64,000 bases of DNA from positions 100,371-164,370 of the forward strand of contig JAFLVK010000001.1 of assembly GCA_022508345.1 (NCBI GenBank), given 5' to 3'. Numbering within the stretch: position 1 is the stretch's first letter; each line of letters starts with the position of its first letter. The stretch comes from Clostridiales bacterium. GTDB taxonomy: Bacteria; Bacillota; Clostridia; Christensenellales; CAG-314. Position numbers and translations under genes: made by a program. Positions 10,958 through 42,016 of this stretch are shown here, piece by piece. The notes beneath the pieces are model-generated. The model worked only from the letters and a program-made list of their open reading frames with translations. It was not told the origin of the DNA and did no database searches.

Positions 10958-11032
10958 GTGCTATTATATAGCATCACTTTTTAAAAAACAAGAGTATAAA
11001 ACGGTAATGAAACAAAAGGGGGAAATTGTCTC

Positions 11033-11542: not shown

Positions 11543-11597
11543 TGGACGTATTCCATTGTTCAATAGACATAATACCATGTAATAACATAGTAGTAAT

Positions 11598-11646
11598 AGT
11601 AAAAACCGCTGCACCTAAAGGTACAGCGGTTTTGTGTTAGATATAA
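11598..11646. repeat. Direct repeat copy 2 (contains a bidirectional terminator hairpin)
   Basis: Identical to 9964..10009 over 46 bp. Lies between the TetR stop and the ppdK stop. Confidence 0.9.
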
Positions 11647-11664
11647 GTATCCACGTTTTTGCAA

Positions 11665-14310: not shown

Positions 14311-14377
14311 TGTTTTTTCCTCCAAAAAATTATTACATCGTTAAGAGCCTTTTATGCTCATACGCATCTATTTTACA

Positions 14378-15013: not shown

Positions 15014-15030
15014 ATTGTCTCCTTTTTCAA

Positions 15031-15615: not shown

Positions 15616-15633
15616 TTTCTCACCCCAAGTGGG

Positions 15634-16266: not shown

Positions 16267-16295
16267 AATTATCTCCTTTAGATAGCTTTGATTGA

Positions 16296-16958
16296 TTAAT
16301 CTGCAGACGTTGTTGCCACAGTTTGCACCTGCGTTGCTGCAGCATGTGATGCCTGACGTGCTAGTCTGCGACGTTCCTTTTCGCGGCGTTTTGCTTCTTC
16401 GCGTTCTTCACGTATTTCGCGTACGGCAATGTCTATGCTGTCCTTTGCCGCGCCCACGTCCTTTGCCGTCAATAGCTTCAAGGATGTTGCCGCCTGCTTG
16501 ACGGATATTTTGTTGGTGGATACGTATCTGCTGAAATTGGGGTTTGCAATGATAAATTCGCAGATAACGGTACCCCGCTTGATAAGCAAACGGATAATGC
16601 GTTTGCCATGCAGACGGTACTCGTCGTAACCGCCGGTAGTGACACACTTTACTTCTTCCACCCTGTTGGCGTATTCGGCAATCTCGTCGTACCAAGCCTT
16701 TTGTTCGCCACTCAGTGCCATGTACTTGTATTTGTGGCTTTGCTTGGGCTCAGCGGAAAACCTCACCTGATCGTCGTCCGCCGCAATCACCACCGTCGAC
16801 TGTTGAGCAGCTTGCTGTTGCCCTACCTGTGTTGTGTCGGCTGATTTTTTTGTCTTGCGCTTGTTGCTATCGCGAAGCATATCGCGCACCACTACACATA
16901 CGGTAAATATGCACATTACCACAACCAATACCATAAAACCGAAAATTAAAGTTTCCAT
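16296..16958 (-). CDS. Single-pass membrane protein of unknown function in the SipW operon
   Basis: Strong RBS AAGGAGG. N-terminal TM (LIFGFMVLVVVMCIFTVCVVV) followed by a basic stretch, a Q-rich linker, a globular region and a highly charged tail REIREEREEAKRREKERRRLARQ. Confidence 0.6.
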   Translation of the reverse strand: METLIFGFMVLVVVMCIFTVCVVVRDMLRDSNKRKTKKSADTTQVGQQQAAQQSTVVIAADDDQVRFSAEPKQSHKYKYMALSGEQKAWYDEIAEYANRVEEVKCVTTGGYDEYRLHGKRIIRLLIKRGTVICEFIIANPNFSRYVSTNKISVKQAATSLKLLTAKDVGAAKDSIDIAVREIREEREEAKRREKERRRLARQASHAAATQVQTVATTSAD

Positions 16959-16991
16959 ATATTCCTCCTTGTTTCAATAAATTTACAATTT

Positions 16992-17690
16992 TTATTCTGT
17001 TGCCTTTTTGCGTTTGGCAATGTTTACAATTTTGGATACATTCCAGGCAATGACAATTACACAAGGAACAATGATGAGCACAGCCAATCCCAGCGGACGT
17101 TTGAGTGAGTACACCAACAAGCCCAAAACGTAGCTTTTGCCCGTTACCCTGCCAATGACGTAGTTGGGGCTTGCCGTGTTGCTTGTGTCGATAGTTTGCA
17201 CGTCGGCAATTCCCGTTGACGACGAATTGTCGCCGCGTAATGTTATGACGTATCCGCCTGTGTCGTTGGGTTCAATGTCAACGATACGGTGAGTGATTGT
17301 CATTTGGGGAGATTGTTTGCCCTCGAAATGCTGACCTGACACGTCGTAGCGGAACGTAAGCACGTCGCCCACCTTTAGCCGGGAGTAGAACTCCTGCGCC
17401 TGCGCTGCACCATCGGGAACAAGCTGCACAAATACCATGCTGCCCTTTCTTATGTCCTTTATCCGACAGTCGGATACGTCCACGTCGGAGTTCTTTTCCA
17501 TTGACCCGCTAAGCACTATCCGCATTTCGTAGCCCAACAGCTTTACCGCGCCGTCCGTATCCCGTTTGCTGAAAACGGTAAACAGCAGCATCGCCAAACA
17601 AAGCGTGCAAAATACGTACACCGGCACATTTGCCACCACGGTCAGCGCCCTGTTGAATTTTGTTGCAGATTTCTTCACGGTTTTTGTCAA
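16992..17690 (-). CDS. sipW: Signal peptidase I, archaeal/ER (SipW) type
   Basis: Catalytic-Ser box LSGSMEK, His box ITHRI, RGDN, and a C-terminal TM anchor. 4-nt overlap with the upstream gene. Confidence 0.75.
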   Translation of the reverse strand: MTKTVKKSATKFNRALTVVANVPVYVFCTLCLAMLLFTVFSKRDTDGAVKLLGYEMRIVLSGSMEKNSDVDVSDCRIKDIRKGSMVFVQLVPDGAAQAQEFYSRLKVGDVLTFRYDVSGQHFEGKQSPQMTITHRIVDIEPNDTGGYVITLRGDNSSSTGIADVQTIDTSNTASPNYVIGRVTGKSYVLGLLVYSLKRPLGLAVLIIVPCVIVIAWNVSKIVNIAKRKKATE

Positions 17691-18169
17691 AATTTTTCCG
17701 CTGTGAGGTTAACTGTGAAATGGGTTGTTGCGTTTTGCGCTTCGTTGCCCGTATCTAACGGCATGGAATATATCACCTTTATTACAGTTGTTTTTGCGCC
17801 TATGCGGCAATTAAAACTGACGGTTTTACCCTCTAGCAGCTCCGAAAGCCTGTAGGTGTAGCAATCCTGCCCGTACTGCAATGCCACGTCGACGTAATTT
17901 TTGAGTGCGCCATTGTCCACCTCGACAAAATCAAAGTTTAACATGTACGTGCCTGCCGATTTGCCCTTGAGGTTGATTGTGTACTCCCTCACGTCGCCCG
18001 GATTCAAACCGCTGGCGGAAAATTCCAGCTTTTCGCGCGTGATGTCATTGTCATTTAGTGTGATATCTTTCATCAAATCGTTGTCTGTTGTAAGTAGCAC
18101 CGTAACAAGTAGCCCTACGCCCACAAGTAGCATCACAACGGTTACTATCGGTAAAACGTATTTTCTCAC
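17687..18169 (-). CDS. Divergent TasA-fold / TapA-like secreted or anchored protein (operon leader)
   Basis: GTG start behind GGAGGG. N-terminal TM without the ALF-D motif. LNPGDVREYTINLKGKS and GNEAQNATTHFTVNLTAE resemble TasA-family motifs. Confidence 0.5.
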   Translation of the reverse strand: MRKYVLPIVTVVMLLVGVGLLVTVLLTTDNDLMKDITLNDNDITREKLEFSASGLNPGDVREYTINLKGKSAGTYMLNFDFVEVDNGALKNYVDVALQYGQDCYTYRLSELLEGKTVSFNCRIGAKTTVIKVIYSMPLDTGNEAQNATTHFTVNLTAEKF

Positions 18170-18295
18170 GCGAACCCTCCAAGTAAAAATCTGATTTTGT
18201 CAAAAGCGAATATTTTTAGTCAATTGCTTATATACTGTAACGCAAAAATTCCAATAGATATTCAGTAATATTGAGTGTAAATGTCGCAAAATGCA

Positions 18296-18335
18296 AAAAG
18301 GCTCTCCCTCATTTAAAGGGAGAACCTTTTACTTA
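18296..18335 (-). terminator. Terminator after galE
   Basis: Hairpin TCTCCCT-catttaa-AGGGAGA flanked by A/T runs. Confidence 0.55.
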
Positions 18336-18355
18336 TAAATATTTACTTTACCCTT

Positions 18356-19366
18356 TTATCTGTATCCGTTGGGATTTTTCCTTTGCCAGTTCCACAACGA
18401 GCTACACATGTCGTCAATGCCCAGCTTTGCCTCCCAGCCAAGCTCTTTTTTGGCTTTTTCAGCGCTGGCGTAGCAACTTGCTATATCTCCGGCTCTGCGT
18501 GGCTTGATAACGTACGGAAGGGTGTGTCCGCATGCCTTTTCGAAAGCGTGAATTACGTCCAGCACGCTGTAGCCAATGCCTGTACCAAGATTGTAGGTGT
18601 ACACACCTGCGCTTGTAAGCTTTTCAATTGCCGCAATGTGCCCCTTTGCCAGGTCCACAACGTGGATGTAGTCGCGTACACCTGTGCCGTCGGGTGTATC
18701 GTAGTCGTTGCCGAACACGCCAATCTCTTTCAGCTCGCCAATTGCAACCTTTGCAATAAAGGGCGTGAGGTTGTTGGGGATACCCTTGGGGTCCTCGCCT
18801 ATAAGCCCGCTTTCATGAGCGCCAACGGGGTTGAAGTATCTGAGTAGCGCAACCGTCCACTCACTGTCCGCTGCGTACACGTCCTTGAGTATCAACTCCT
18901 GCATGTATTTGGAGGTTCCGTAGGGGTTGGTTGTTCCGCCCACTGCGCACTGTTCGTCAAGGGGCAAACGCTCGGGTGAGCCGTACACCGTTGCCGACGA
19001 CGAGAACACTATGCGCTTGCAACCGTGCTTTTTCATTTCTTCAAGCAACACCAGCGTGCCGCCGATGTTGTTGTCGTAGTATTCCAGTGGCATTTCGCAC
19101 GATTCGCCCACTGCCTTGAGCCCTGCAAAGTGGATAACCCAATCTATCTTGTGCTTAGCGAATATATGAGACAAAATTTTACGGTCACGTACGTCATTTT
19201 TGTAAACGGTTACCTTTTTTCCGGTAATTTGCTCCACGCGCTTGAGACACAACGGTGAAGAGTTGCTGAAGTTATCTATTACAACAACTTCGTGCCCGCG
19301 ATTGAGTAGCTCCACTACCGTGTGCGATCCAATGTAGCCTGCGCCACCTGTAACAAGTATTTTCAT
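18356..19366 (-). CDS. galE: UDP-glucose 4-epimerase
   Basis: [16 protein letters not shown]-terminus and YGTSK catalytic motif. 336 aa. Confidence 0.92.
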
Positions 19367-19378
19367 AGTGTTCCTCCT

Positions 19379-20494
19379 TTAACATTTAGTAACAACGATA
19401 CCGTCGTTAATGTCCGTGTCGTAACAGACGGCGTCGTAACCGATTTGCTTTTTGTATTCCCTTACAACATGCTGCTTGAAGTCATCAACGGCATCCGTCT
19501 TGACAAGCGACACCGTACAACCGCCAAAGCCACCGCCCGTCATGCGCGAACCGATGCAAGCAGGGTGCGACTGTGCAATGTGGGCCAGTGCGTCCAGTTC
19601 CTTGCCCGTCACCTCGTACAGCTCAGATAGTGACGCGTGCGACGCATTGAGGAGCTTGCCGAACTGCACCATATCTTTGTTGCGCATGGCAATTTCCGCA
19701 AGGTGTACGCGTTCGCATTCCTCCACGACGTGCTTTGCGCGCTTGTACACCGTGGGGGGAAGCAAGCTTTTGTGCGCCTCCAGCTCGCAAGGTTTAACCT
19801 CCGCAAGGCAGGTAACATTTAATTTGCTACTCAGCAATTTCAATGCCAGCTCCGTCTCTTCGCGACGTTCGTTGTAGCGACTTTCCACCAGATTGTGCGG
19901 CTTGTTGCTGTTGATTATCACTATTGAATAGTCTCCCGTATTTACTGGAACATATACGCAATCAAGTGTTTTGCAGTCCAGCAGCATTGCGTGCCCTGCC
20001 CTGCCACACGCCGATGCGTACTGGTCCATGATTCCGCAATTTACCCCGGCGTATTCGTGTTCCGCCTTTTGCGCAAGTAACGCAATCTCCACAGGGTTGG
20101 GTGTTTCACCTGCTATCACGGCAAACGCGGCAAGCGCGGATACTTCAATGGACGCCGAAGAGGACAGCCCGCTACCGAAGGGTACCTTGCAGTCAATTAG
20201 CATATCGCAACCTTTAAGTTGGTGCCCAGCACTCTTCCACAACGAAGCGCAACCAGCAAAATACTTGGCGTATTTGTGCGATTTGTATTCCTCCAGTCTG
20301 TTAATATCCATGGATACCTTGTCGGGCAAGGTTGTCCAGGAAAGGTTGATAATTTGCGAACCGTTTTCTCGAACGTATACAGTTGTGACAAGAGACAGCG
20401 CGCACGGCATCACCTTGCCTCCGCAGTAATCGATGTGTTCGCCTATAAGATTAACGCGCCCGGAAGCAGTTACTTTGTATTGGTAATTGTTCAT
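19379..20494 (-). CDS. galK: Galactokinase
   Basis: Signature GRVNLIGEHIDY and GHMP-kinase motif PFGSGLSSSA. Confidence 0.92.
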   Translation of the reverse strand: MNNYQYKVTASGRVNLIGEHIDYCGGKVMPCALSLVTTVYVRENGSQIINLSWTTLPDKVSMDINRLEEYKSHKYAKYFAGCASLWKSAGHQLKGCDMLIDCKVPFGSGLSSSASIEVSALAAFAVIAGETPNPVEIALLAQKAEHEYAGVNCGIMDQYASACGRAGHAMLLDCKTLDCVYVPVNTGDYSIVIINSNKPHNLVESRYNERREETELALKLLSSKLNVTCLAEVKPCELEAHKSLLPPTVYKRAKHVVEECERVHLAEIAMRNKDMVQFGKLLNASHASLSELYEVTGKELDALAHIAQSHPACIGSRMTGGGFGGCTVSLVKTDAVDDFKQHVVREYKKQIGYDAVCYDTDINDGIVVTKC

Positions 20495-21987
20495 ATCGTA
20501 AAACCTAAATCTTTCATAAACTCCACCGTTTCCTGCTTTGTTTTGAATACGGCGGTATTGTCCAAAATGCGGTTGCAGATGTCGCCCAGCTCGTCCTGCA
20601 TTGCCCGGTGAACCTTGTTTTTGCTACGCGCACCGACGAGACGTTTTGTCACTTCGTCGTACACCAAAGCAAAGTCTTTCAGTTCGTCGCTTAGCGGCTT
20701 ACCCTCGGCAATCAGCGTTTCTATTTGATTGAGCTCAGCTTCCAAGCGCCCTGGGAGTATAAACAAGCCCTGCGCTTCGATAAGCCCGATGGACTCCTTT
20801 TTTATAATGTGGAACTCGGGATGAGCGTGGAATATTCCGTCGGGGTAAATGTCGCTTGTGATGTTGCTACGCAAGATGATGCTCATTTCGTACCCGCGCG
20901 CAGTTTTTACAACCGTGGGACTAATGGCGTTGTGTAAGCCCTTGCCGTCAACGGGAACTATCTGCTTAAATTTGTCTTCATAGCTTACCCATTTGGCACG
21001 TACAGCTTCGCCTATCTGTTCGATAGCGCTGCGGTTAGCGGACACAATGCGCACAACGGTGCCTGCCCAGTCCACCACCTCGACAATGGCATCTGGGTAC
21101 TTGGAGTTGCGCAGTGTGTAGCTGGCTTTCGCCTTGTGCATGGGCAATATTTCGCCACCGCCTTGGTAGTGGTCATGCGCAAGAACACTGCCGCCGATAC
21201 GCTCCAACGCTGCGTTACAGCCGATAAAGTAGTTGGGGAACATATCTACGAAATCCATCAGTCGCACAAAGGTTGCGCGGTCGGTGTGCATGGGTATATG
21301 CTCGTAGTTTACCGCAATGCCGTGTTGATTGAAATATCCGTAGGGCGAAAACTGCCAAAACCACTGCTCGCCACCAAGAGTGATGTCGATTGTGCGCAGG
21401 GTACGCTTGCTTCTGCCAGCGAAGCCCTCGTTTTCATGACAGATGCTGCACTTGGGATAACCGCCCTTTGTAGCGTTACCGCTGGCTGCCTTTTTCGGGT
21501 CGCGGAACTCGGGTTTGGACTTGTTGATTGTAACTACAAGCCCCTGCGAATCAAAGCGTGGGTTTTTGTCCAGTTGAGATTTTTTTACGTAGTCGCCCTT
21601 TACTGAGTAGTCGTAAAACCACTGCATAGCTTCACCGCTGCCCAGCGTGCGCAGCTTTTCTTCAAATACAGCCTGCGTTTCCTTTGGGGACATCATGAGC
21701 TCGCCCATTACGCTGTCGCAAAAGTAGCTTGCCTCCTCACGCTCGAACACACCCGCATTTACGCACGCGTCGGCAAAGCGTTTAAGCACGTTGTCGGGCG
21801 TTACGTCCAGGCACTTTTCCTGCGTGTCATTCGCAAATGATTCCAGCCCAAGCAAACGCAATATCCCGTTGCGTACGTAATGAACATTTTTTCTGTCCAA
21901 ATTTAACTGGCGCTCGGCGTAGTCGATGAGCGCATCAATGCTACGGTAAACCTCTGTCATAAATAACCTCGGCACATACTTTTTCAA
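20491..21987 (-). CDS. galT: Galactose-1-phosphate uridylyltransferase, family 2 (long Gram-positive type)
   Basis: 498 aa. 4-nt overlap with galK. Family-2 GalT length and layout. Confidence 0.85.
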   Translation of the reverse strand: MKKYVPRLFMTEVYRSIDALIDYAERQLNLDRKNVHYVRNGILRLLGLESFANDTQEKCLDVTPDNVLKRFADACVNAGVFEREEASYFCDSVMGELMMSPKETQAVFEEKLRTLGSGEAMQWFYDYSVKGDYVKKSQLDKNPRFDSQGLVVTINKSKPEFRDPKKAASGNATKGGYPKCSICHENEGFAGRSKRTLRTIDITLGGEQWFWQFSPYGYFNQHGIAVNYEHIPMHTDRATFVRLMDFVDMFPNYFIGCNAALERIGGSVLAHDHYQGGGEILPMHKAKASYTLRNSKYPDAIVEVVDWAGTVVRIVSANRSAIEQIGEAVRAKWVSYEDKFKQIVPVDGKGLHNAISPTVVKTARGYEMSIILRSNITSDIYPDGIFHAHPEFHIIKKESIGLIEAQGLFILPGRLEAELNQIETLIAEGKPLSDELKDFALVYDEVTKRLVGARSKNKVHRAMQDELGDICNRILDNTAVFKTKQETVEFMKDLGFTI

Positions 21988-22143: not shown

Positions 22144-22517
22144 GGGGGTGTTTTTAGATTCGCCCGGCGTCAAAGGAGATTTGATAAGCGCGTCGCAGCG
22201 CCCACTGCGTATCAAGGCAAAATTAAATTAAACGCTAACAATAGCACAAGCCGTTCCACAGGAATGGCATTCGCTGCCTAGTTTAATGCCAGCGCGTAGG
22301 CTTTCGCACTTTTGCGTTGCGAGATGTCCTGCGTTATAACACGCAAATAGAGCCGTAACGGTTGCAACGAGACGTTACAGCTCGAAGCTAATTTCGTTGC
22401 AGGCAACGGCAAGTTGGTTTACTATCTAGCCGTTGCGACAATGAAAGTAAACTACACGCGTAGAAAGTCAGGTAGTCTTACGTTGGTACACGGGTGCAAG
22501 TCCCGTCACCTCCACCA
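22144..22517 (+). ncRNA. ssrA: tmRNA (SsrA)
   Basis: 5' GGGGGTG pairs with 3' CACCTCC-ACCA, giving a G3:U70 alanine identity pair. T-arm ACGGG-TGCAAGT-CCCGT. Tag frame GCT AAC AAT AGC ACA AGC CGT TCC ACA GGA ATG GCA TTC GCT GCC TAG encodes ANNSTSRSTGMAFAA*. Confidence 0.9.
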
Positions 22518-31303: not shown

Positions 31304-31353
31304 CAACGCAACTAAAAATCAAGGTGCACAAGCACCACTTAATATCAAATAAA

Positions 31354-31378
31354 AACGGCGAGAAATTATCTCGCCGTT
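31354..31378. terminator. Bidirectional terminator between convergent genes
   Basis: AACGGCGAGA-aatta-TCTCGCCGTT flanked by an A-run and a T-run. Confidence 0.8.
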
Positions 31379-31383
31379 TTCTG

Positions 31384-32634
31384 TTATTCATTGTTTTCAG
31401 TTTCGCTAGCTTTGGCTGTAACTTTTCCGTGGCGTTTGTCATAAACAAGCAAAAATACTGTTCGTACAAACAAAATAGCGGAAAGTATCATTAACGGAAG
31501 ATCGTTCAACAGGCTGCCCGAAACGAAAAATCCGCATACGAAGAATATTAGCGTTGTAATAAGTGCAGCAACTGCAAGATACGCGCCCTCAACCTTCAAA
31601 ACGGTTGAATAGCTCCTGCCCCACTGCGACTTCATAGTCCTCAGTACTAGCCATGCCACAAACGCCAGCGCCAAAGCGAAGAGTGTTACTACCACCAGGT
31701 ATCTTAAGATATTGCCAAGATACAAGCTCGCATACAGCGGAACAGCGGCATAGAAAGCCTCCCTGAGGAAAGCATCGGTTTCGCTTGCCGACACGTTGCC
31801 GACGTGCTTTGCGCTGTACAAGCCGTAGAAAGTAACCGGCAAATTACCGTCGGTATGAAATGAACCAACCAAAAACTCCTCAAAGATAAACAGATAATCG
31901 CAAGCCTGTTGGCTATTTATATAATTGTCGTAGTAGTAATTTCTGAGCAACGGCGCCGAACCTGCGGAAACATACTTTGTTATTTCGGGATAGTATGCTT
32001 GCAGATACAGCGCGTAAACATCTAAATTGTACTCCTCTTGAGAAATGGAGTTTTTGCTTGCCAGTAAGCTATTGTACTGCTGCTTTATGTCGTCACTATC
32101 TGTCGTGTTCAAGTACTGCTCGTACTGTGCAACCAATTCGTCTGTCAGCACCAGCTCGTTGGGTGTGTAGCGCAAATTGAAGATGTAATTTATCTTTTCT
32201 TCGTCGGGCAATGCCAGATAAGCCTCGTAGGTAATCTCGCTTGAACCGTCGTAGTACACGCAGTACGTTTCGAAATCGTCCAATGCCGTAGACGGGCGAG
32301 TATCAACAACCAGGTTGTAACCGTTTGTGCTGTAAAGGTCCGCATCCTCCTTATTGACGAAGGTGTTTACCACTGTGTCAAATGCAGCGTGACTGTCACT
32401 GACTGTTACGTCCAAGTTGTCGAAAGCCGCCTGCGCAAATGCCTTGAAGTCCGTTGCGTGGTTGTAATGCGTTGCAAACGGCAAGAAATTTGCCGCAAGC
32501 AATCCACAGAAAATGAACGCAAGTGCCAACAGCAAGCCAAGGAAGAAGCTCAAAAAGCCTTTGCTATTGCTTTCCCTGGCTACCTTGTCGGAGAAGAAGC
32601 TCAGTCCAAAAAATCTAAGCCAACTTTTCATCAT
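31384..32634 (-). CDS. Polytopic membrane protein with large extracytoplasmic loop (DUF1189-like architecture)
   Basis: 416 aa. N-terminal TM, then a ~250-aa Y/D/N-rich loop, then 3-4 C-terminal TM helices. 60 nt downstream of the giant gene on the same strand. Confidence 0.5.
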   Translation of the reverse strand: MMKSWLRFFGLSFFSDKVARESNSKGFLSFFLGLLLALAFIFCGLLAANFLPFATHYNHATDFKAFAQAAFDNLDVTVSDSHAAFDTVVNTFVNKEDADLYSTNGYNLVVDTRPSTALDDFETYCVYYDGSSEITYEAYLALPDEEKINYIFNLRYTPNELVLTDELVAQYEQYLNTTDSDDIKQQYNSLLASKNSISQEEYNLDVYALYLQAYYPEITKYVSAGSAPLLRNYYYDNYINSQQACDYLFIFEEFLVGSFHTDGNLPVTFYGLYSAKHVGNVSASETDAFLREAFYAAVPLYASLYLGNILRYLVVVTLFALALAFVAWLVLRTMKSQWGRSYSTVLKVEGAYLAVAALITTLIFFVCGFFVSGSLLNDLPLMILSAILFVRTVFLLVYDKRHGKVTAKASETENNE

Positions 32635-32693
32635 TTCACCTCATTTGTTTGAAATATCCGTGCCAAGTTGATGGCAAACCGCATGCTTGCACA

Positions 32694-35600
32694 TCAAGCG
32701 TACTTGGCCCATTCCGTATCTGCCAGCGATTGCTTGAGGTTGCTGATGTGATCGGTGTAGTGCCAACCGTTTGTGCCCACAAGGCCGGAATCACGGTAAA
32801 TGCGGTTCATGTGCCACTGGATGTGGTCGGTATTTGCAACGCCTGCACTCTTGAACTGGCAAAGCAAGCGAATGTAGCGATCGTCACTGAACAGCTTGCT
32901 CATATCGCGCGTGCTTGTATCGGTAGTTTTGAATAACTCCTTTTTGTAAGTTACGCTTCCGCCGTCTACACTGTTTTTGTAATTGTACGACCAAGCAGCA
33001 AGGTCAACATTGAGCGCTGAAATAATCGACTTTTTCGTAGCCAAAGTTTTAAGCGCGCCGGCCTCCGAGCCACCGCTTGTCAGCTCGTAACTGTTGGAGC
33101 TATTGTTCCACAGATAATGCTTACGAGTACTTCCGCCCGAATATTGGTTGAGCAGTACCAGGTTGAAATATCGCGTATCATCGGCATGCTTACCACCGTC
33201 TTGACCGAACCACTCTGTGTATTCGTTCATTTCCAACAAGGTGCTGTCCATCAACGATTTAACTGTGGACGAGCCCACTGCATCTACAACGCTTGACGCA
33301 ATGGCTTTGAGCAAGCCGCTGGTGTTGAAGTAGCTCAAGCAATCAACAAAGCCCTTGAAGTAATACAGGCTGCTATCCGAACCGCTGCAAATTGCTCTTA
33401 CCGATTCGACGATAACAATGTTTTCAAGGTACGCCTGCGTGTTGTCGCCATTCATTACGATACCGTAGTCAGCGCAGTAGCGCACAACGGTGTTTTTCAG
33501 ATAGTCTTTCCTGTTGCCGCCCAAGTCCAAGCCAATGCGCCAGCCTTGAATGTCACAGTAGAAGTAGTAATTGTATGTTGCGCCAACGCCGATGTTTAAG
33601 CGGTAATTATCCTTAGTTATTTCACTTACAATGTTACGCCCTTTAAGCGTGACGTTGTACGCCTGGCCGATGTTGAGATAATGGTTCCAGCTTACCTCCT
33701 GACCTTCCGCTTTACATGCTTCGTAAGCTCTGGTATTGAACTTGTCGAAGTTGACCTGATAGCCGTTACCGTAAATTATACTTTTGTTAAGCGTAGACAC
33801 GTTGAGATACACAAGTCCGTTGCTTTCGTTTATGCTGTACTCGGAAAGTGCCGGATCAAGCACGAGTTTCGAATCAACGTCGTCGCGCTCACCAGGTCCG
33901 TACAGGTTGTTTTGCAGTACGACACTACCGCCGGGATATGCAAGGTAGCCCGCTGCGTCAAAGACGTTAACTAGCGCCGTGTTGTTGAGCACGTTGAAGT
34001 TGTAGTGACGGGATACGGTGCTTTCCGATACGCCGTCGTTTGCCTCTACGCGCAGGAATGCACCCGCATTTGCACTGGGGGCAAAGGTACGTCCGCTGCC
34101 GTCGTCAGTTGCTTGTGTGTACTTGTAGCCGCTTTCGCCAAAGTCGCCGAAGTAGTCGTTTTGTACGTCACTTTCAGACAGACCTGCAAAGCTTCCGAAG
34201 TAAATACGCGCATATCCCGGTTCGCTGAACACGTCAACCCAGGTGATACCACCACTGTTTTGTCCGTTTTCGTCCGTTACGACGTTGCCGCCAACCTCTT
34301 GCAGATAGTAACCTTTTGTTCCCTTGATAATGCTGTACGCTTTGCCGTTGTAGGTTACAGTTGTACCTGATTGCGAAGTGATTACCTGTTGATTTCCGCC
34401 TACCACACGCGTAAGCACCCAGTTGAGCGATTGGTAATCTTCTTGTGATGCGGCACCGATATTTGTGGTGACACTAAGGGGTATTTTGTAGTAGTCCACC
34501 TGTTTACCGTCGTAGTAAGAGTGCTTTGCAAATACCCTCACCTGTTGGTAACCGAGATATACGTCGTCCTTTTTGCCGATGTCGTAACCGTTGAACTCAA
34601 TACTTTGGATAGCAACGCGTGTAACGATAACCGTCTGAGTGATGTTGCCGTGATGAATGTCCAACGATTGATTGAACTTAGTAACGGAGGGGGTTACAAC
34701 GATAGTTGCTGAAGTTGCATCGTAGGAGACAGCCCAATCCTGCAAGCCGTCAATGCTGAACAGCGTTTGGAACTTTTCGTTGTTGCCCACACCGCCAAGT
34801 AGGTTGTCGCCCAAGCCGATGATAAAGGTTATCCTGTCCTGCATATTGCGCGGAAAGGTGTAATTGATAGCTGAACCGCCCCCTGACACAGTGTAGGTTT
34901 CCAGCTTCTTTGCGCCCTCTTGCGTGGACGTGTAGGAGGCAGTGAGCGTGAAGGACTCCACTTGCGAAATCTGTTTGAGGTTGATTTCAAATTCGTTCGT
35001 TCCGCCGTCTGCCGACTTGAAGTACACCTTGCTGGCGTCGTAGCCCAAGTCTACCGTTACCTTGCCGTTTACAACGTCAACCGTAGCCCATTGACCGCCG
35101 TCTATTCTCCACATTACCTGCTTGTTGGTAATGTCGCTTCTGTTATCCAGCCTGCTTAGCGTTACAGTGAAGTCAATCTTGTCCAATAGCGTGAAGTATT
35201 CGCCATTGCCGCTGACAAACTTTGTGTTTCCGTAACTTACCGCAATTTGGTTAGCTTTTACTTTTACAGTCACCTTGATGTCGTACTGTATGTTGCTTAT
35301 TGTAAGCTGTACTGTAGCTGTACCGCCGTTTGTTGCCTTGATAATGATTTGCTTGCCGTCCTGCGACACGGTGGAATTGAAGTAAGCTGTGCCGTTCAAA
35401 ACAGGCAGATGCTCACTCAAAACAAAATCGGCAGGAACAAAGCTATCACCCACAGTGAACACAAGCGTTTCGCCAATGTCCTCCAGCACAAATTCGTTTA
35501 CCGCATCAGTTTGCAAAGCCACACCGTTAGCCGTAACCGTGGGCGCCTCGCGCAACGTGCCGAAAGTGGAGATCATATCGCAAGCAACGGATATGTGTTC

Positions 35601-37673
35601 GCCACTGAAGCCGAACTGTTGTACAGCGTCGGTGTACACCAACTTAGCCGTTACTCTCAGGCGTTGATTTTCCGCAGTGAACTCCAACAAACCGTTAAAT
35701 ATAAAGGGTGATTGTGATGCCTGTGCGCTTCCGCTGGTGACGCTTACCGTCAGCTTTTTGCCTGCAAGCGACCCGTCGTTATCCGCAACGGACACGGTAA
35801 ATTCGTAGCTGCTGAGGCTTGTTACAAAGCCGTTTTCGAAGTCGAAGTTCACGTCGGAGGTAGATACCGACTTGTCAATGTACACGTTTATCGTGTAAGT
35901 ATCCGTTGCCGTTGTGTCGTCAAAAGTTACCGTTATTATTACTGTTGCGAAGCCGCCTTTTAACGGCTTGATGCTTTTGAACTCATCCTCGTCAACAAGC
36001 TGTATTACGTCGTCGCCGTCCACTATCTGATAGCTAACTTCCTTGGCTCCGCTGGGGCGTGTAAACACAATTTGCGCCGTTTGCTCGTCAACATCGTTTA
36101 GCGCCAATGCCAGGCTAGCAGACGTTACTTGTCCGCCTATTTGCACCGTTTTGCCTTCTGCCTTTACGCGAGTAACGGTAAGGCTTGCGGAGGACTGTTC
36201 TTCACCATTGCCGTCTACTGCAAATACCCTTACAACAGCGTGACCGTTGCTGTTGAAGTGCAACAGTCCTTGGCTTGTGATTGTGGGAGCAACACTTCCG
36301 GAGTATTCTGTAATTTCGTATTTAATTTCATTGGTGTGGCTTGCAGGTGTTACGCGCACGCCTACGGAATTGGCCGAAACGCTATCGTCGTAGACAGCTG
36401 CAAGGTTGACGTAGTTGTTGCTTGTCAGCATTGCATTGTCGTGCACGCTGTCGCCCACAAACTCAATGGTTTTCACATTGCGTGTAAACGTAACTCTGAA
36501 CACGTCGGAGTTCGTCTCGATTAGCTTGCCGTCCGTTGCGCTGTACTTGCGCGCGCGGAGTGTGATGGTTACGTCGTTGGTGTCAACAGGCTTGTCACCC
36601 GTGACGGCAAAGGTTTGACTGTTTTTATCAAAGCTGATTACCCCTTGCGGATTGAAAACCACTTCGATAATTTCGCGATACGAACCTTTGGGGTTGGGCG
36701 TAATTTCTATGGGCAAATTTTTGCCTTTAAGGTAGTACTCGTCGAAGTCAAATGTTGCCGAAGTACTGTTGAACAGCGCGCCCGTGTAGTAGCCGAACGT
36801 GCAAGAATATTGCTTTTGCCCCTGCACAGTTTTGCCGCTAAAGTCGGTTGCTGTTACAGTGAAGTCCACTATACCTGCCTGTTTGAAAGAGATGTTACCC
36901 TGTTGGTCAATCGTGGCAATATCCGTGTTGGACGAGGAGTAAACCACTCTTGCAAACACGTCCGTGGGTATCAGTGACACAGCGGGGAACTTGGCCGTGT
37001 GCTCTACGATGATTTCAACGCTTGAGTCGAAGTCAATTGCAACAAGCTCCTTGTGGCAGGTAATTTCCACACTGGCTTTGACATTGGGGTTTTCGTTTAG
37101 TTGAGCGGTAACGGTAACGGTTCCCTCGCCAAGTGCTGTGACCATTCCGTTTTGGTTGACGGTGAGCACTTCGGGGTTGGAGCTGAACCATTCAACAAGT
37201 TGGTTTTCCGCTTCCTTGGGGTACAAGCTGACCGTAAGAGTTGCGGATTCACCCTCGTACATGGTGGTTGGATATTCGTTGAACAGAATCTTGTGCACTT
37301 TCGTATCGGTAACCAGCACCTTTTTCGAAATGCTTGCGGCTTCGTTTTCCACACTGCGCACGCGAATGTACGTTTCGCCGTAGCCCACTGCTTTTACCTG
37401 TCCGTTAGCGTCAACAGTAACCACCGACGCGTCGTCCGACGTGTAGGTAAGCTTTTGATTGGTTGCATTAAGTGGCAGAACATTTACTTCTGCCTTGTAT
37501 GTGGGTGGAGCGCTTTCGTCGTCCATAATCAGCACCACTGTGTCAGGCTGAACGAACTCCAACGCTTCAACGTATATGTGTGTTAACATACCCAGCACTG
37601 CACCGGAAACGAGCAATACCATCAGTACAACCAGTGGTAGCAAGATAACTGCCGATCCCATTAGTTTTTTCAT
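32694..37673 (-). CDS. Giant (1659 aa) secreted or anchored protein: N-terminal TM, multiple Big_2/Ig-like repeats, non-Ig C-terminal ~550 aa
   Basis: Start at ATG 37673 (MKKLMGSAVILLPLVVLMVLLV) behind AGGAG. Big_2 signatures include LTYTSDDASVVTVDANGQVKAVGYGETYIRV and VEWFSSNPEVLTVNQNGMVTALGEGTVTVTA. Confidence 0.75.
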   Translation of the reverse strand: MKKLMGSAVILLPLVVLMVLLVSGAVLGMLTHIYVEALEFVQPDTVVLIMDDESAPPTYKAEVNVLPLNATNQKLTYTSDDASVVTVDANGQVKAVGYGETYIRVRSVENEAASISKKVLVTDTKVHKILFNEYPTTMYEGESATLTVSLYPKEAENQLVEWFSSNPEVLTVNQNGMVTALGEGTVTVTAQLNENPNVKASVEITCHKELVAIDFDSSVEIIVEHTAKFPAVSLIPTDVFARVVYSSSNTDIATIDQQGNISFKQAGIVDFTVTATDFSGKTVQGQKQYSCTFGYYTGALFNSTSATFDFDEYYLKGKNLPIEITPNPKGSYREIIEVVFNPQGVISFDKNSQTFAVTGDKPVDTNDVTITLRARKYSATDGKLIETNSDVFRVTFTRNVKTIEFVGDSVHDNAMLTSNNYVNLAAVYDDSVSANSVGVRVTPASHTNEIKYEITEYSGSVAPTITSQGLLHFNSNGHAVVRVFAVDGNGEEQSSASLTVTRVKAEGKTVQIGGQVTSASLALALNDVDEQTAQIVFTRPSGAKEVSYQIVDGDDVIQLVDEDEFKSIKPLKGGFATVIITVTFDDTTATDTYTINVYIDKSVSTSDVNFDFENGFVTSLSSYEFTVSVADNDGSLAGKKLTVSVTSGSAQASQSPFIFNGLLEFTAENQRLRVTAKLVYTDAVQQFGFSGEHISVACDMISTFGTLREAPTVTANGVALQTDAVNEFVLEDIGETLVFTVGDSFVPADFVLSEHLPVLNGTAYFNSTVSQDGKQIIIKATNGGTATVQLTISNIQYDIKVTVKVKANQIAVSYGNTKFVSGNGEYFTLLDKIDFTVTLSRLDNRSDITNKQVMWRIDGGQWATVDVVNGKVTVDLGYDASKVYFKSADGGTNEFEINLKQISQVESFTLTASYTSTQEGAKKLETYTVSGGGSAINYTFPRNMQDRITFIIGLGDNLLGGVGNNEKFQTLFSIDGLQDWAVSYDATSATIVVTPSVTKFNQSLDIHHGNITQTVIVTRVAIQSIEFNGYDIGKKDDVYLGYQQVRVFAKHSYYDGKQVDYYKIPLSVTTNIGAASQEDYQSLNWVLTRVVGGNQQVITSQSGTTVTYNGKAYSIIKGTKGYYLQEVGGNVVTDENGQNSGGITWVDVFSEPGYARIYFGSFAGLSESDVQNDYFGDFGESGYKYTQATDDGSGRTFAPSANAGAFLRVEANDGVSESTVSRHYNFNVLNNTALVNVFDAAGYLAYPGGSVVLQNNLYGPGERDDVDSKLVLDPALSEYSINESNGLVYLNVSTLNKSIIYGNGYQVNFDKFNTRAYEACKAEGQEVSWNHYLNIGQAYNVTLKGRNIVSEITKDNYRLNIGVGATYNYYFYCDIQGWRIGLDLGGNRKDYLKNTVVRYCADYGIVMNGDNTQAYLENIVIVESVRAICSGSDSSLYYFKGFVDCLSYFNTSGLLKAIASSVVDAVGSSTVKSLMDSTLLEMNEYTEWFGQDGGKHADDTRYFNLVLLNQYSGGSTRKHYLWNNSSNSYELTSGGSEAGALKTLATKKSIISALNVDLAAWSYNYKNSVDGGSVTYKKELFKTTDTSTRDMSKLFSDDRYIRLLCQFKSAGVANTDHIQWHMNRIYRDSGLVGTNGWHYTDHISNLKQSLADTEWAKYA

Positions 37674-37684
37674 ATGCCAATCTC

Positions 37685-39283
37685 CTAAATCTCTATGCAT
37701 CTGTATTTAACGGACGCGCTTGTTACGAAAATTGTAACATTGATTGCCGCGTACACGGCAGCTGTTAAATCTACTATCGTATAGCATATTGCGTGTTGCA
37801 GGAAAAATGGTACAACCAACGCCAATACGCCCACTATTGCGCCTATCACCATGCCGATTAGCATCATTATGGTGATGTTTATTTCATCTGCTTCGCCATT
37901 TGCCTTGGGGCGAAGGTTGGGGTTTGCCAAGTTAAGATTGAGACCGTTGAATACGAACCCGACGGTTAGCAACAGCTCTGTCAAAATGAGAATAAACATT
38001 TCGCCCACGGATACAAATTCCAACGATACCAATATCACGCAACTGATTAGTAGCGCACCAATAGACACGCACAGGTTCAAAAATCCCTTGATAAGCAGCT
38101 GCTTGCGATAGCTAACCGGCACCAGCTTGGTGATATAGAAGTTTTTGCCCTCCATGCTCAGCGAATTGGCAGAAAATGCGGAAATCATTGCCATGAATGC
38201 CGAAATTACCAGCATGGACGCGCCGAAGTTTATCTTGTCGCCTATTTGTGCCTGCCCCACCTGCGTGATTAGCCTGTTGCAGAAGAACACCATCACGGGC
38301 GTGGCTATTGCAATGCCCAAGTAAAAGTAGGAATAGGTTTTTGTACGGATAATCTCCTTAAAGCCGTGCTTAAGCATTGAGATTGTCGGTCCGTAGTCGT
38401 CCAGGCGCGAACGGCGACGGAATGTTGTGCCGTTGCCCTCCAACAAATCGATGCGCACACGGTTGTATATGGGGCGAGCAATGGCTATACCCGCGGCGGA
38501 CAACAGGGCTGCAAGCCCCACTGTTACCAACAGCCCCAACCAAGCACGGTCGAAGAACACAATGCTGCCCAGGTAAAAGGCGGGGTTGTAGTACGAATCC
38601 AGCGCGCCAAGCAGCGACCCCCAGATGTTGAGCGTGTCGGTAGACATGTTGCGGTGTATGAAGTAATCTGCCAGCACCGTCAGCACGTAGTTGTACAGTA
38701 CGAAAAAGCCAACCAGCGCAACAATAAATATCGACAGTCGAATGATGTTGTGCGTTTCCAGCTTGGACGTAACGTACATCAGGGGTATTGCAATAAGTGT
38801 GGACAGCGCAAACGGTACCATCGGCGCGAAAATCACACCCAGCAGTATCCCGATGACATATACTAGGCTCAATATGCCCTGCACAAAGCCGTAAACAAGC
38901 AAAATGGGCAGTAGCAACATTGCCGAGTACAGCGCAAGGTCAATGTAGATGAGTATCAGGTTGCACAGATACACCTTGTACGGCGAAATGGGGAAACGCG
39001 CGGTAATGTGCAAGTCGCCGGGGCGATACATGCGCTTGAGCTGCATGGTAATTCCCACAACCGTAAGGCTTAGCTCCACTATCGTAATAAACAGCATTGC
39101 AAGGCGCTTGTCGGATACGTCAGTGAGGTTGCTTGACAGCACGGACGTAAGTAGCATTTCCAACGCCAGCGCAACAATGATAACCAGCAAGCTTACTGTG
39201 CCTGTAAGAAATGCGCTCCTCTTGCTGTTGTTGCGGTTGAAGCCCCACTTCAGTTTAAGTTGTAAGCGTATAAACTCTTTCAC
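37685..39283 (-). CDS. Polytopic ABC-2/putative-exporter-type permease (532 aa)
   Basis: 10 or more TM helices. GTG start overlaps the ATPase stop (GTGA). Confidence 0.6.
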   Translation of the reverse strand: MKEFIRLQLKLKWGFNRNNSKRSAFLTGTVSLLVIIVALALEMLLTSVLSSNLTDVSDKRLAMLFITIVELSLTVVGITMQLKRMYRPGDLHITARFPISPYKVYLCNLILIYIDLALYSAMLLLPILLVYGFVQGILSLVYVIGILLGVIFAPMVPFALSTLIAIPLMYVTSKLETHNIIRLSIFIVALVGFFVLYNYVLTVLADYFIHRNMSTDTLNIWGSLLGALDSYYNPAFYLGSIVFFDRAWLGLLVTVGLAALLSAAGIAIARPIYNRVRIDLLEGNGTTFRRRSRLDDYGPTISMLKHGFKEIIRTKTYSYFYLGIAIATPVMVFFCNRLITQVGQAQIGDKINFGASMLVISAFMAMISAFSANSLSMEGKNFYITKLVPVSYRKQLLIKGFLNLCVSIGALLISCVILVSLEFVSVGEMFILILTELLLTVGFVFNGLNLNLANPNLRPKANGEADEINITIMMLIGMVIGAIVGVLALVVPFFLQHAICYTIVDLTAAVYAAINVTIFVTSASVKYRCIEI

Positions 39284-40101
39284 TTGTCCTTTACCTCATT
39301 GAGCTTCATAAAGTAAGCATCAAGGTCGAAGCCTACTTTGCCGCGCAAGTCCACAATGCTTGCTATTGTGCCCTTTTTGATAAATACAACCTTGTCGCAC
39401 GTCTTTTGAACTGTGTCGAGGTTGTGTGAAGAAAACAGCACAGCGTGGTCTTTGTCGGCATAATTGCGAATGTATTTACGCAAAAGCGCCATAGTTTGCG
39501 GATCCAGTCCCACCATAGGTTCGTCCAGTACCCACAGCTTTGGCTGATGTACGATAGCACCCAAAATACATATCTTTTGGCGCATACCGTGCGAATAGTT
39601 GGCAATTTGCATGTCCAAGGCGTGGTCTATTTCAAAGTGCTTGGCAAGGGTGTCCGTCGCGTACTGCTTTTGCTCCTTAGTTGCCTTGTACAGGCTGCCC
39701 ATGTAGTTGATGTATTCCCTACCTGTAAGCTTTTCGTAAACGGAGTGGTCGTCAGGCACGTAACCAATCAGCGACTTCGCCTGTTCGGGTTGCTTGATTA
39801 AGTCGAACCCGCAAATGGATATGGATCCCTCCGAAAAGGGCAATATGCCCGTCAGCGCTTTGATTATCGTGGACTTGCCCGCACCGTTGCTACCCACAAG
39901 GCCGACTACTTCGCCACAGTCCACTGTGAACGACACGTCCTTGGTTGCGTAGTAATCGCTGCGCGAGTATTTTTTGCTGTAATTTACTATTTGCAGGCGG
40001 TGAGGCGTATTTGCCTCCGTCGCGTCTGCACTTTGGATGACTTTTATTTCTTGTGAAGGTTCCGCTTGGGGGTCTTCATGCTTTTTAACTTTGCTTGCCA
40101 T
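39280..40101 (-). CDS. ABC transporter ATP-binding protein (ABC-2 exporter type)
   Basis: Walker A GSNGAGKST, signature YSHGMRQK, Walker B LWVLDEP. Start at ATG 40101 behind AAGGAG. About 40-aa acidic N-terminal extension. Confidence 0.85.
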   Translation of the reverse strand: MASKVKKHEDPQAEPSQEIKVIQSADATEANTPHRLQIVNYSKKYSRSDYYATKDVSFTVDCGEVVGLVGSNGAGKSTIIKALTGILPFSEGSISICGFDLIKQPEQAKSLIGYVPDDHSVYEKLTGREYINYMGSLYKATKEQKQYATDTLAKHFEIDHALDMQIANYSHGMRQKICILGAIVHQPKLWVLDEPMVGLDPQTMALLRKYIRNYADKDHAVLFSSHNLDTVQKTCDKVVFIKKGTIASIVDLRGKVGFDLDAYFMKLNEVKDK

Positions 40102-40321: not shown

Positions 40322-40786
40322 TTAAGATAAAAAGCAGACTTTTTGTCTGTAGGAAACGGTACTGTAGCAATCTACAGTTTGGTTTCTCTCTTCACGCTTG
40401 TTGTAATTGTCCTGCTTCTCTTGCTTGTGCTCATCGGCATTGCCAAGCGCGCGCAAAAACAAACCGTACTCGTCCAAACAAGTAAAGGTAAGCGCAGATA
40501 CAATGCTGATTGCAAATTGGAAAATAAACGACGACGTAGTAAAGGCGTTGTCCACGAACAGAACGCGCACAGCCTCGTCGATATTGCGCCAGGTGTTGAT
40601 TGTAAACAGGTTGTTGTTGTGCTGTACAAGATTGCTAAGCAACGTGTTGATTACAACAAAGAAAAAGAACACAACAAAAAACTTGACAAACATTCCAACG
40701 ACATTGCCAAACTTTTTAACCTTGTGTTCCAATCTGATTTGTTGTTCGTTCTCGATTACGCGAGAATCGTACACAAAAGTGCGCAT
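40322..40786 (-). CDS. Hypothetical small membrane protein (uncertain)
   Basis: It is the only ORF in 40240..40931 with protein-like composition and two hydrophobic helices. The RBS-like GGTGAGG is very close to the ATG. Confidence 0.3.
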   Translation of the reverse strand: MRTFVYDSRVIENEQQIRLEHKVKKFGNVVGMFVKFFVVFFFFVVINTLLSNLVQHNNNLFTINTWRNIDEAVRVLFVDNAFTTSSFIFQFAISIVSALTFTCLDEYGLFLRALGNADEHKQEKQDNYNKREERNQTVDCYSTVSYRQKVCFLS

Positions 40787-40993
40787 AGCCTCACCAGTAC
40801 AGCTTCACCTGTCGAAGCCGATAATTTACTATTATAGTATTACTATTATACTTGCAACGCCCGAAATGTCAACAAGTTTTGCCGAGTTGCGGGCAAAATT
40901 CGAAAAAACGACACATTTTTTCAAATTTTGAAAGCTCTGCACTATGCTGTGACATTTGTAAATCTCTTGCTGTCGTCTGCTTTTTCATATATT

Positions 40994-41939: not shown

Positions 41940-42016
41940 TGGTAGAGATAGTAGGGCTCGAACCTACGACCTCTCGCATGTGAAGCGAGCGCTCTGACCA
42001 ACTGAGCTATACCTCC
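41940..42016 (-). tRNA. tRNA-Val (anticodon CAC), CCA encoded
   Basis: The reverse complement GGAGGTATAGCTCAGTTGGTCAGAGCGCTCGCTTCACATGCGAGAGGTCGTAGGTTCGAGCCCTACTATCTCTACCA folds as a cloverleaf of 77 nt. The acceptor stem has two G-U pairs (1-72, 5-68). Confidence 0.9.

Follow-up and report, generated by a model that had tools for sequence, protein, structure and literature searches.

Gene content of the locus

The window analysed here is a stretch of 64,000 nt from the metagenome-assembled genome of a Clostridiales bacterium of the Christensenellales (GenBank assembly GCA_022508345.1, 702-kb contig JAFLVK010000001.1, positions 100,371–164,370). It carries, at nt 31,384–40,101, four co-directional open reading frames (ORFs) on the minus strand that specify, in 5' to 3' order, the ATPase of an ATP-binding cassette (ABC) transporter, a permease, a giant protein with immunoglobulin (Ig)-like repeats of the Big_2 type, and a 416-aa membrane protein. 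The comparisons described below indicate that the first three genes form a conserved module, the arrangement of which is not due to chance, and that this three-gene unit looks like an undescribed, ATP-driven apparatus of the cell surface. In the NCBI annotation (locus tags J1F68_) they carry only the labels 'ABC transporter ATP-binding protein', 'hypothetical protein' and 'Ig-like domain-containing protein'.

The ATPase gene (nt 39,280–40,101, minus strand) most likely begins at the ATG at nt 40,101, which has an AAGGAG ribosome-binding site 5 nt upstream and gives a protein of 273 aa; the NCBI entry (MCH5152469.1) uses an upstream ATG at nt 40,122, which would give 280 aa. The GTG start of the permease gene (nt 37,685–39,283, minus strand, 532 aa) overlaps the TGA stop of the ATPase gene as GTGA. 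The giant gene (nt 32,694–37,673, minus strand) codes for a protein of 1659 aa and 181 kDa, and its ATG (nt 37,673) lies 11 nt past the permease stop codon, TAG, which is itself overlapped by an AGGAG site. This start is backed by the homologues, all of which open with MKKLM. The fourth gene (nt 31,384–32,634, minus strand) starts 59 nt past the giant stop codon and has its own ribosome-binding site, GAGGTGA. The gene order, the GTGA overlap, the 11 nt spacing and the gap of about 60 nt before the fourth gene had all been given in a preliminary description of this DNA, made from the sequence alone, and are confirmed here.

The ATPase and the permease

The ATPase matches PF00005 (E 8e-29) and falls in the type V / ABCA-DrrA class. 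Its Walker A (GSNGAGKST), signature (YSHGM), Walker B (LW[IV]LDEP; LWVLDEP in the window) and H-loop (SSHN) motifs are kept across 56 homologous loci. The signature is non-canonical, with YSHGM in place of LSGGQ, and by its motifs, all of which are intact, the enzyme is predicted to be catalytically competent. Compared with its homologues, whose alignments open at residue 43 of the 280-aa form, the protein is extended at its N-terminus by about 35 aa, a feature missing from most relatives. The preliminary description had recognised this extension (as ~40 aa) and called it acidic; it is only mildly so, with six D/E against five K/R.

Searches of PDB sequences returned as the closest solved relatives the second nucleotide-binding domains of ABCA4, ABCA7, ABCA3 and ABCA1 (E 6e-45 to 5e-39), with LptB and NosF coming next. 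The best NCBIfam match was to drrA, with 197.6 bits against a cut-off of 312.45 for DrrA (TIGR01188), and the ATPase lies under every curated cut-off of that library, including those for GldA (TIGR03522; 170 bits against 402.6), lantibiotic protection (TIGR03740; 127.2 bits against 309.75), NodI, PmtA/PmtC and others. A GldAFG system was rejected on this GldA score and on finding no GldF- or GldG-like genes, and BceAB or lantibiotic immunity was set aside on the corresponding score, there being no FtsX match and no regulator conserved nearby. The anti-phage models of PADLOC showed generic, partial ABC/AAA likeness for the ATPase only, and the other four proteins searched gave no match.

An AlphaFold2 (AF2) model of the permease (pLDDT 79, pTM 0.72) is all-helical, with about 12 transmembrane (TM) helices, in line with the 10 or more proposed previously. 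They fall into two halves of six helices each, connected by a cytoplasmic linker rich in K/R (residues ~271–316), and the loops are short, with no sizeable extracytoplasmic domain. The top Foldseek matches in the PDB were 8k1o, 8k1p and 8k1n, which are structures of Rv1217c (probability 1.0, E 9e-3, TMq 0.44); further matches were to ABCG2, ABCG5/8, CcmB, Wzm and ABCH, and all of the ABC matches were type V. With moderate support from the modelled fold, the ABC pair is thus assigned to the type V (ABC-2/ABCA-like) exporter class, with two fused transmembrane domains (TMDs).

At the sequence level the permease is more isolated. The families PF16962 and DUF1189, suggested in the preliminary description, gave no match, and the only weak Pfam match was to PF16949, below threshold (16.2 bits, E 0.005, cut-off 25.7). 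A distant relative of the permease, at locus L089, passes this cut-off (29.4 bits), and the window permease appears to be tied to PF16949 through such intermediates only. The sequence families touching the permease are PF16949 (ABC_tran_2) and PF09847 (12TM_1), with no others; a search of the literature returned no functional study of either. A permease profile gave no match among PDB sequences, and the protein has no solved or named sequence relative. The family is a tight one, with about 120 relatives at 39–61% identity, after which the next match drops to 24%. The ATPase and permease together represent a new, divergent lineage of type V ABC exporters.

The giant protein

Along its length, the giant protein can be divided into an anchor, a membrane-proximal Big_2 region, a stalk and a head. 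Residues 1–40 (MKKLMGSAVILLPLVVLMVLLVSGAVLGMLTHIYVEALEF; nt 37,554–37,673) contain a single hydrophobic helix at about residues 9–27 followed by a strand, HIYVE-x-VEF, and are proposed as the element that docks on the permease. Three Big_2 domains (PF02368) follow in residues 58–282 (nt 36,828–37,502), at about 58–112, 136–200 and 234–282 (E 3e-9, 9e-15 and 5e-6). The stalk (residues 283–1009, nt 34,647–36,827) has a fourth, weak Big_2 match at about residues 834–874, and the Big_2 total is 99 bits over the four stretches. Apart from this weak match, no significant Pfam match was found in residues 300–1010, where further Ig-like segments are plausible. The C-terminal 650 aa (residues 1010–1659 with the stop codon, nt 32,694–34,646), here called the head, are non-Ig and family-specific. 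The N-terminal TM helix, the several clear Big_2 repeats and the non-Ig C-terminal region of the preliminary description are all borne out.

Conservation varies widely between these parts. The most conserved segment is residues 1–40, with a mean pairwise identity of 72% compared with 21–53% elsewhere. The anchor motif is present in all 62 giants found, is recognisable in the distant clade and outgroup described below, and includes, in the main clade and its sister clade alike, an invariant Pro in the middle of the helix and a patch of small residues, SG(A). Residues 41–200 show 45–52% mean pairwise identity and the Big_2 region (residues 58–282) is moderately conserved at 35–52%, while the stalk drops to 21–36%, with many indels and an alignment occupancy of 0.55–0.72. 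Proteins of the family range from 1316 to 3726 aa, and the variation is concentrated in the stalk. Within the head, conserved blocks again reach 50–53%.

The AF2 model of the head (pLDDT 75, pTM 0.81) shows beta-sandwich segments, a run of short strands and a C-terminal helical part rich in Cys and His. The core, with the motifs YGNGY, ENIVIV and FKGFVD-x-L-x-Y, is probably right-handed beta-helix-like, as its secondary-structure pattern and Asn/Gly ladder motifs suggest. Pfam searches with the head (five C-terminal regions, E up to 10) gave no consistent match; one giant homologue matched PF13229 weakly (E 0.011), and the window giant did not match it. Foldseek returned nothing at E ≤ 1e-3 in the PDB or BFVD, in a search that the multi-domain model probably blunts, and the weak matches (all E > 0.04) were to GH55, GH87, K1 lyase and tailspikes. 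A phmmer search of 1.84 billion representative proteins with the head gave 78 matches, essentially all from the same family, and the giant-family alignment matched only Big_2-containing chains among PDB sequences. Acidic residues conserved in the head include E1167, D1169, D1173 and D1213. At the extreme C-terminus (residues ~1605–1642, nt ~32,748–32,861) there is an invariant pattern, C-x8-N-x2-H-x2-W-H-x5-R-x14-H, that could be a metal-binding site.

The giant has no LPxTG-like motif (regular expression) and no SLH, cohesin, dockerin or choline-binding Pfam match, as the earlier inspection by eye had indicated, and anchoring by sortase or by any of these domains was rejected. The C-terminus is not rich in Gly/Asp repeats.

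Conservation of the three-gene module

The family alignment was searched against one genome per GTDB species, which gave 72 loci, and these make up most of the set of related loci (L001–L075). In about 57 GTDB genome loci (tblastn) the genes are found in the same order and on the same strand, with the ATPase and permease directly 5' of the giant; identities to the window proteins are about 67% for the ATPase, 54% for the permease and 34% for the giant. The spacing between permease and giant is 7–25 nt in 48 of 56 loci. The hosts of this main clade are nearly all uncultured Clostridia known from metagenome-assembled genomes (MAGs) of the rabbit gut; Candidatus Borkfalkia stercoripullorum and a small number of other hosts are also represented. 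In several MAGs the giant is present in two or three copies. A collection of 5.8 billion proteins yielded about 20 full-length relatives of the giant at 30–39% identity, none of them informatively named.

Beyond the main clade the linkage persists. Where permease identity has dropped to 44% and 39%, a Big_2 giant of about 2790 aa still comes next, and in the outgroup, where the permease is 24% identical, the next gene begins 2 nt further on and its product starts with MKKIMLFIIALIPICLL...NYISVDRIVF. A metagenome scan with this single outgroup permease (P0240) found nothing. The same kind of scan with a permease alignment (A3) revealed a distant sister clade on 40 metagenome contigs (L087–L126), several of them labelled as human-gut. 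Here the permease, of the PF16949 type, is 23–31% identical, and an ATPase of 49–53% identity lies upstream wherever upstream DNA is available. In 39 of the 40 loci a partner protein of 795–1089 aa is encoded 6–22 nt downstream, the exception being a contig that ends at the permease (examples of the arrangement are L089, nt 9153–14,626, and L095, nt 8898–14,542). These partners start with MKKVMIGILILIPIIILLVVAMVS..QAHIAVENIEL (consensus MKK[VI][MI]IG[IM]L.L[IL]P.II...VS...[HWY]I.V), and Big_2 was found in all four that were scanned. An hhalign comparison of the giant head with the C-termini of this distant clade gave a probability of 75% (E 2.6e-5) over the YGNGY, ENVV and GF-D-x-NY motifs. 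The partners belong to 90%-identity clusters of 88–843 members, of which the few named ones are 'hypothetical' or 'Ig-like domain-containing'.

Altogether, more than 100 independent contigs carry all three genes side by side. This bears on the alternative that an ordinary drug, bacitracin, lantibiotic or Na+ exporter happens to lie beside a surface protein, an idea that the generic likeness of the ATPase to DrrA, lantibiotic-protection and NatA-like ATPases might suggest. The ATPase lies below every curated cut-off, however, and the linkage is kept down to a permease identity of 23%; moreover, the roughly 120 close permease homologues form one tight family, with a giant after each one for which downstream DNA was examined. 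Fortuitous adjacency is refuted by these synteny data, and we consider its probability negligible. The module is ancient relative to its lineages and widespread in gut Clostridia. The preliminary description had regarded the coupling of an exporter-like ABC pair to a giant protein as non-standard, a view that this conservation in about 57 loci and a sister clade, together with scores below the curated cut-offs, upholds.

Clustering of the ORFs from 76 loci showed that the recurrent genes are the three module genes and an optional gene of the TMEM164 family (PF14808). No glycosyltransferase, regulator, sortase or adaptor gene recurs near the module in these loci. Those genes of the window that specify a 154-aa ORF, a GNAT protein, a 352-aa ORF and a pyrophosphatase (PPase) were found at none of the related loci (tblastn). 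A sensing role, one of the possibilities raised in the preliminary description, is disfavoured because no regulator or sensor gene is conserved nearby.

The TMEM164-family protein (~280 aa, 6 TM helices; PF14808, E 1e-14) flanks the module in 22–24 loci and is absent from the window. Its gene usually lies 0–210 nt 3' of the giant on the same strand (L007, nt 15,304–16,149; L011, nt 7646–8500; L035, nt 15,043–15,891), while it is divergent and upstream in L001/L005, L026 and L042, and downstream on the opposite strand in L051. Human TMEM164 has been described as a lipid acyltransferase, and the presence of this neighbour may point to a function connected with lipids.

An ABC pair is lacking immediately 5' of three giants: that of L014, the second one in L019 and the first one in L051. 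The L014 giant (nt 10,001–15,262) is an orphan with no ABC pair within the 10 kb shown, and a complete module is present elsewhere in the same MAG; in L019 (nt 3480–8564 and 8793–17,804) and L051 (nt 8700–13,103 and 16,990 onwards) an anchored giant adjoins a complete module. Enormous ORFs are also seen downstream of the giant in L002 (nt 14,730–21,220), L003 (nt 15,006–21,220) and L046 (at a distance of about 660 nt), with predicted products of 6717–7484 aa, one of which has a faint MBG_2 match.

The fourth gene

TM helices lie at either terminus of the 416-aa protein, which also has a ~264-aa loop containing 11% Tyr, 8% Asp and 7.6% Asn; this confirms the Tyr/Asp/Asn-rich loop of the preliminary description. 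No terminator-like site was listed between the giant gene and this gene in a scan for such sites, and a bidirectional terminator-like hairpin with a 13-bp stem (nt 31,351–31,381) follows it and closes the transcription unit. The 416-aa gene is probably co-transcribed with the giant in this species.

The four genes had been taken as one cluster, and an operon in which the 416-aa protein is a functional component would fit the co-directional arrangement, the 59 nt spacing, the lack of a terminator before the gene and the strong terminator after it; the arrangement is shared by a near-identical strain, in which P0001 and P0241 are encoded on one 24.5-kb contig. This species and that strain are the only ones in which the gene follows a giant; it was found in none of the 75 related loci and none of 45 metagenome loci. 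The 416-aa family has more than 120 relatives and no Pfam domain. Homologues at 77%, 61% and 34% identity lie in unrelated neighbourhoods, directly 3' of a gene for a MalK-like ATPase of 480–523 aa (PF00005 with OB_MalK/TOBE_2). These three neighbourhoods (L076, nt 8543–11,245; L077, nt 5063–7779; L078, nt 6173–9067) are concerned with sugar utilisation and have no giant or PF16949 permease nearby. The synteny data largely refute a functional four-gene operon, which we judge to be very improbable. Of the neighbourhood as originally delimited, the ATPase, permease and giant genes are syntenic and the 416-aa gene is not, and the latter is a local, species-specific neighbour rather than a component of the module.

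The 416-aa protein was also considered as a homologue of the TMEM164-like neighbour found in relatives, and the two show no homology. No MalK-like ATPase is encoded in the window. The MalK-like ATPase and the 416-aa-family protein may be an undescribed couple in their own right.

Relationship to known systems

The type V exporter Rv1217c–Rv1218c of M. tuberculosis (PDB 8K1M/N/O; PMC11406275) matches the ABC pair described here in its gene-level architecture. Both have one ATPase gene and a permease of about 530 aa in which two non-identical TMDs are fused; in the mycobacterial transporter the ATPase is a homodimer. Rv1217c is the best Foldseek match to the module permease. The signatures of both ATPases are non-canonical (YSKGN in Rv1218c, YSHGM in the module). 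On the other hand, Rv1217c and the module permease have no detectable sequence homology, and Rv1217c–Rv1218c is described as a rifampicin efflux pump, with no extracytoplasmic partner, whereas the transporter of the module is always followed by an anchored Big_2 protein.

In the LptB2FG–LptC system, the TMDs take up the single N-terminal helix of an extracytoplasmic partner that extends from the membrane (PMC9544173), and LptB is among the closest solved nucleotide-binding domains to the module ATPase. LptF and LptG differ in being type VI permeases with beta-jellyroll domains, found in diderm hosts, and their small partners bridge lipid to the outer membrane, while the host Clostridium of the module is assumed to be monoderm, the permease lacks a large external domain and is paired with a protein of 800–3700 aa with Ig-like repeats. 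The MlaFEDB and Mce systems likewise accommodate the single N-terminal helix of a partner protein. In NosDFY (PDB 7O0Y family) an ABC-2/type V transporter is combined with an extracytoplasmic right-handed beta-helix protein, and ATP hydrolysis drives conformational work, not bulk transport; NosY is a homodimer with 6 TM helices, and NosD (~45 kDa) sits directly on it. NosF is among the PDB matches to the module ATPase. No nos or copper genes accompany the module, however, and its beta-helix assignment is weak and concerns a head that a long stalk separates from the membrane.

Type I secretion of adhesins such as SiiE, LapA and Bap (PMC6272769) resembles the module in the genetic linkage of a giant Ig-like repeat protein to an ABC transporter. 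It differs in using a type IV ABC protein with fused TMD and nucleotide-binding domain (PF00664), an HlyD-type adaptor, a TolC-type channel and a C-terminal signal. Adhesin export of this kind was rejected, as PF00664, HlyD and TolC are absent from the operon and its conserved flanks and the signal of the module is N-terminal and hydrophobic. The FtsEX complexes with PcsB, CwlO or EnvC are alike in that an ABC complex controls an extracellular protein with no solute being transported, but the FtsX permease is of type VII (PF02687) and binds the partner through a large extracellular domain. The module permease has no PF02687 match and no external domain, and FtsEX was rejected.

The module is thus kin to those ABC transporters that work with a single-pass extracytoplasmic partner. 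Big_2 itself is common. An obligatory link between a type V ABC pair and an N-terminally anchored giant Ig-repeat protein is undescribed in the libraries and literature searched, where no account of an ABC and giant module was found.

Proposed mechanism and alternatives

The strong conservation of the anchor is the starting point for the reading that we favour. Because generic Sec signals are not conserved this strongly, the N-terminal helix very probably has a specific partner, and the permease is the only candidate since it is the only consistently adjoining gene and is translationally coupled to the giant. We regard it as an evenly balanced proposition that the anchor helix docks on the permease and that the ABC transporter is the ATP-driven membrane base of a surface fibre. 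By analogy with Rv1217c–Rv1218c, the base would consist of one 12-helix permease and two copies of the single ATPase. The giant would be inserted N-in/C-out via its first ~30 residues and would project the three Big_2 domains, the variable stalk and the family-specific head, which probably contains a beta-helix. The anchor helix and the juxtamembrane HIYVE strand would contact the permease in the manner of LptC on LptFG, the probable site being a lateral gate that faces the lipid, and if such a complex is formed the movements of the TMDs would be coupled to the fibre.

There are structural precedents for such a contact. The TM helix of LptC intercalates in LptFG and takes part in lipopolysaccharide extraction (PMC9544173), and Rv1217c, a type V exporter in which two TMDs are fused, has a cavity that is filled with lipid and open to lateral access (PMC11406275). 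In the module, ATP binding and hydrolysis could be coupled via the anchor such that a hydrophobic substrate derived from the membrane is handed to the fibre; alternatively, ATP hydrolysis could change the conformation or retention of the fibre. The distal head would most likely bind or cleave a glycan. Other precedents are MlaD and the Mce proteins, NosD on NosFY, and the CcmAB-dependent release of CcmE. We infer that the anchor stays uncleaved, and likewise the roles given here to ATP hydrolysis and to the head. The orphan and tandem giants that carry the same anchor in genomes or loci with one ABC pair fit recognition of the anchor in trans. The module may even define a class of envelope machine that has so far gone unrecognised, in which a type V ABC base moves, retracts, sheds or gates an Ig-repeat fibre tipped with a novel head, or feeds a membrane substrate along it, an assignment that is tentative and that we think more doubtful than the docking itself.

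Several observations weigh against docking of an uncleaved anchor and the machine built on it. Covariation between giant residues 1–45 and the permease, measured as mutual information with average product correction in 52 paired loci, was uninformative, the top anchor–permease value being 0.447 compared with 0.448 for the ATPase control. The N-terminus might instead be removed as a signal peptide; there is an SGA motif at residues 23–25 and, in one distant subclade, an AQA motif just before HI. The permease model has no sizeable external domain, and force would therefore have to pass through the membrane helix alone. Foldseek aligns the permease with Rv1217c at modest strength (E 9e-3, TMq 0.44), the matches behind the beta-helix assignment of the head are weak, and conserved linkage can also arise from co-expression of proteins that do not associate physically.

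The same N-terminus may be explained in terms of biogenesis. It would then be a specialised export or insertion signal, and the ABC transporter would recognise it and insert it, extract it from the bilayer or clear it, with the giant being released to the wall or medium; the transporter would act catalytically and not as a stable partner. Analogous activities are the export of helical phenol-soluble modulin (PSM) peptides by PmtCD, the release of CcmE by CcmAB and the extraction of lipoproteins by LolCDE. Such a role would account for the strongly conserved N-terminus and the tight gene coupling, and a catalytic factor working in trans fits the orphan and tandem giants that share one ABC pair; the sub-threshold likeness of the ATPase to PmtA/PmtC, the presence of CcmB among the permease fold matches and the possible signal-peptidase motifs (SGA, plus AQA in one subclade) point the same way. 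However, MKK followed by a hydrophobic stretch looks sufficient for ordinary targeting by the signal recognition particle and Sec, and no cleavage motif is common to the clades, that of the window having LVT or MLT before HIYVE. Most genomes, including those with multiple copies, have one ABC pair per giant, and we know of no type V ABC transporter that handles a 180-kDa protein. A dedicated biogenesis system is, in our estimate, unlikely.

An indirect link has a similarly low likelihood. Here the ABC pair would export a separate lipid, glycolipid, glycopolymer, hydrophobic peptide or drug, and the head of the giant would bind or act on the product outside the cell, as in KpsMT–KpsE or Wzm–Wzt-type glycopolymer export with accessory extracytoplasmic proteins, with no mechanical connection between anchor and permease. 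Type V exporters typically move lipids, lipid-linked glycans and hydrophobic compounds, and Wzm and ABCG/ABCA-type proteins are among the matches; the head gives weak hints of a beta-helix glycanase or lyase, and a TMEM164-family membrane protein flanks the module in 22–24 loci. This neighbour is, however, absent from the window and most loci, and no biosynthetic gene (glycosyltransferase, polymerase or lipid synthesis) recurs beside the module in the 76 loci, for which reason a glycopolymer export cluster in particular is unlikely. An indirect link also leaves unexplained why conservation in the giant peaks at a membrane helix.

If the coupling of anchor and permease is physical, transporters of the Lpt, Mla/Mce, NosDFY and FtsEX-like kinds would gain a new type of partner, a giant fibre on a type V fold, in host Clostridia that are assumed to be monoderm. 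It would also provide a first functional handle on PF16949-type permeases, on a C-terminal domain that has no detectable relatives outside its family, and on the very large surface proteins of uncultured Christensenellales-like bacteria of rabbit, mouse, chicken and human. Roles in adhesion, glycan capture or contact with host and phage are suggested by the variability of the stalk and head and by the presence of multiple paralogues in one genome. The short form of 800–1100 aa is common in human-gut metagenomes, with 90%-identity clusters of up to 843 members.

Other features of the window

Upstream of the module, 220 nt 5' of the ATPase gene, is an ORF of 154 aa with two TM helices (nt 40,322–40,786) that has no Pfam match and no homologue at the related loci. 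It is preceded by a promoter-like site on the minus strand (TTGACA-16-TATAAT, nt 40,845–40,872) in which all 12 positions of the -35/-10 consensus are matched, and the transcription unit may begin here. A tRNA-Val(CAC) gene (nt 41,940–42,016) lies about 1.8 kb upstream of the module, and a tmRNA gene was found at nt 22,144–22,517 (Rfam, 104 bits). The window, which also carries genes for H+-PPase, pyruvate phosphate dikinase, DnaK/DnaJ and a Clp ATPase, represents an ordinary part of the core chromosome. Antisense to the pyruvate phosphate dikinase gene (nt 11,665–14,325, minus strand) is an ORF of 681 aa (nt 12,349–14,394, plus strand) with no Pfam match, which is most likely a shadow ORF. 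A cluster near the left end (nt 1601–6334) has two BPD_transp_1 permease genes flanked by unannotated ORFs of 534 aa and 366 aa and no ATPase gene; the 534-aa ORF (nt 1601–3205) was considered as a second permease copy and is unrelated to the module permease. The cluster looks like a sugar ABC importer, and its composition fits the use of a shared MsmX/MalK-type ATPase encoded elsewhere.

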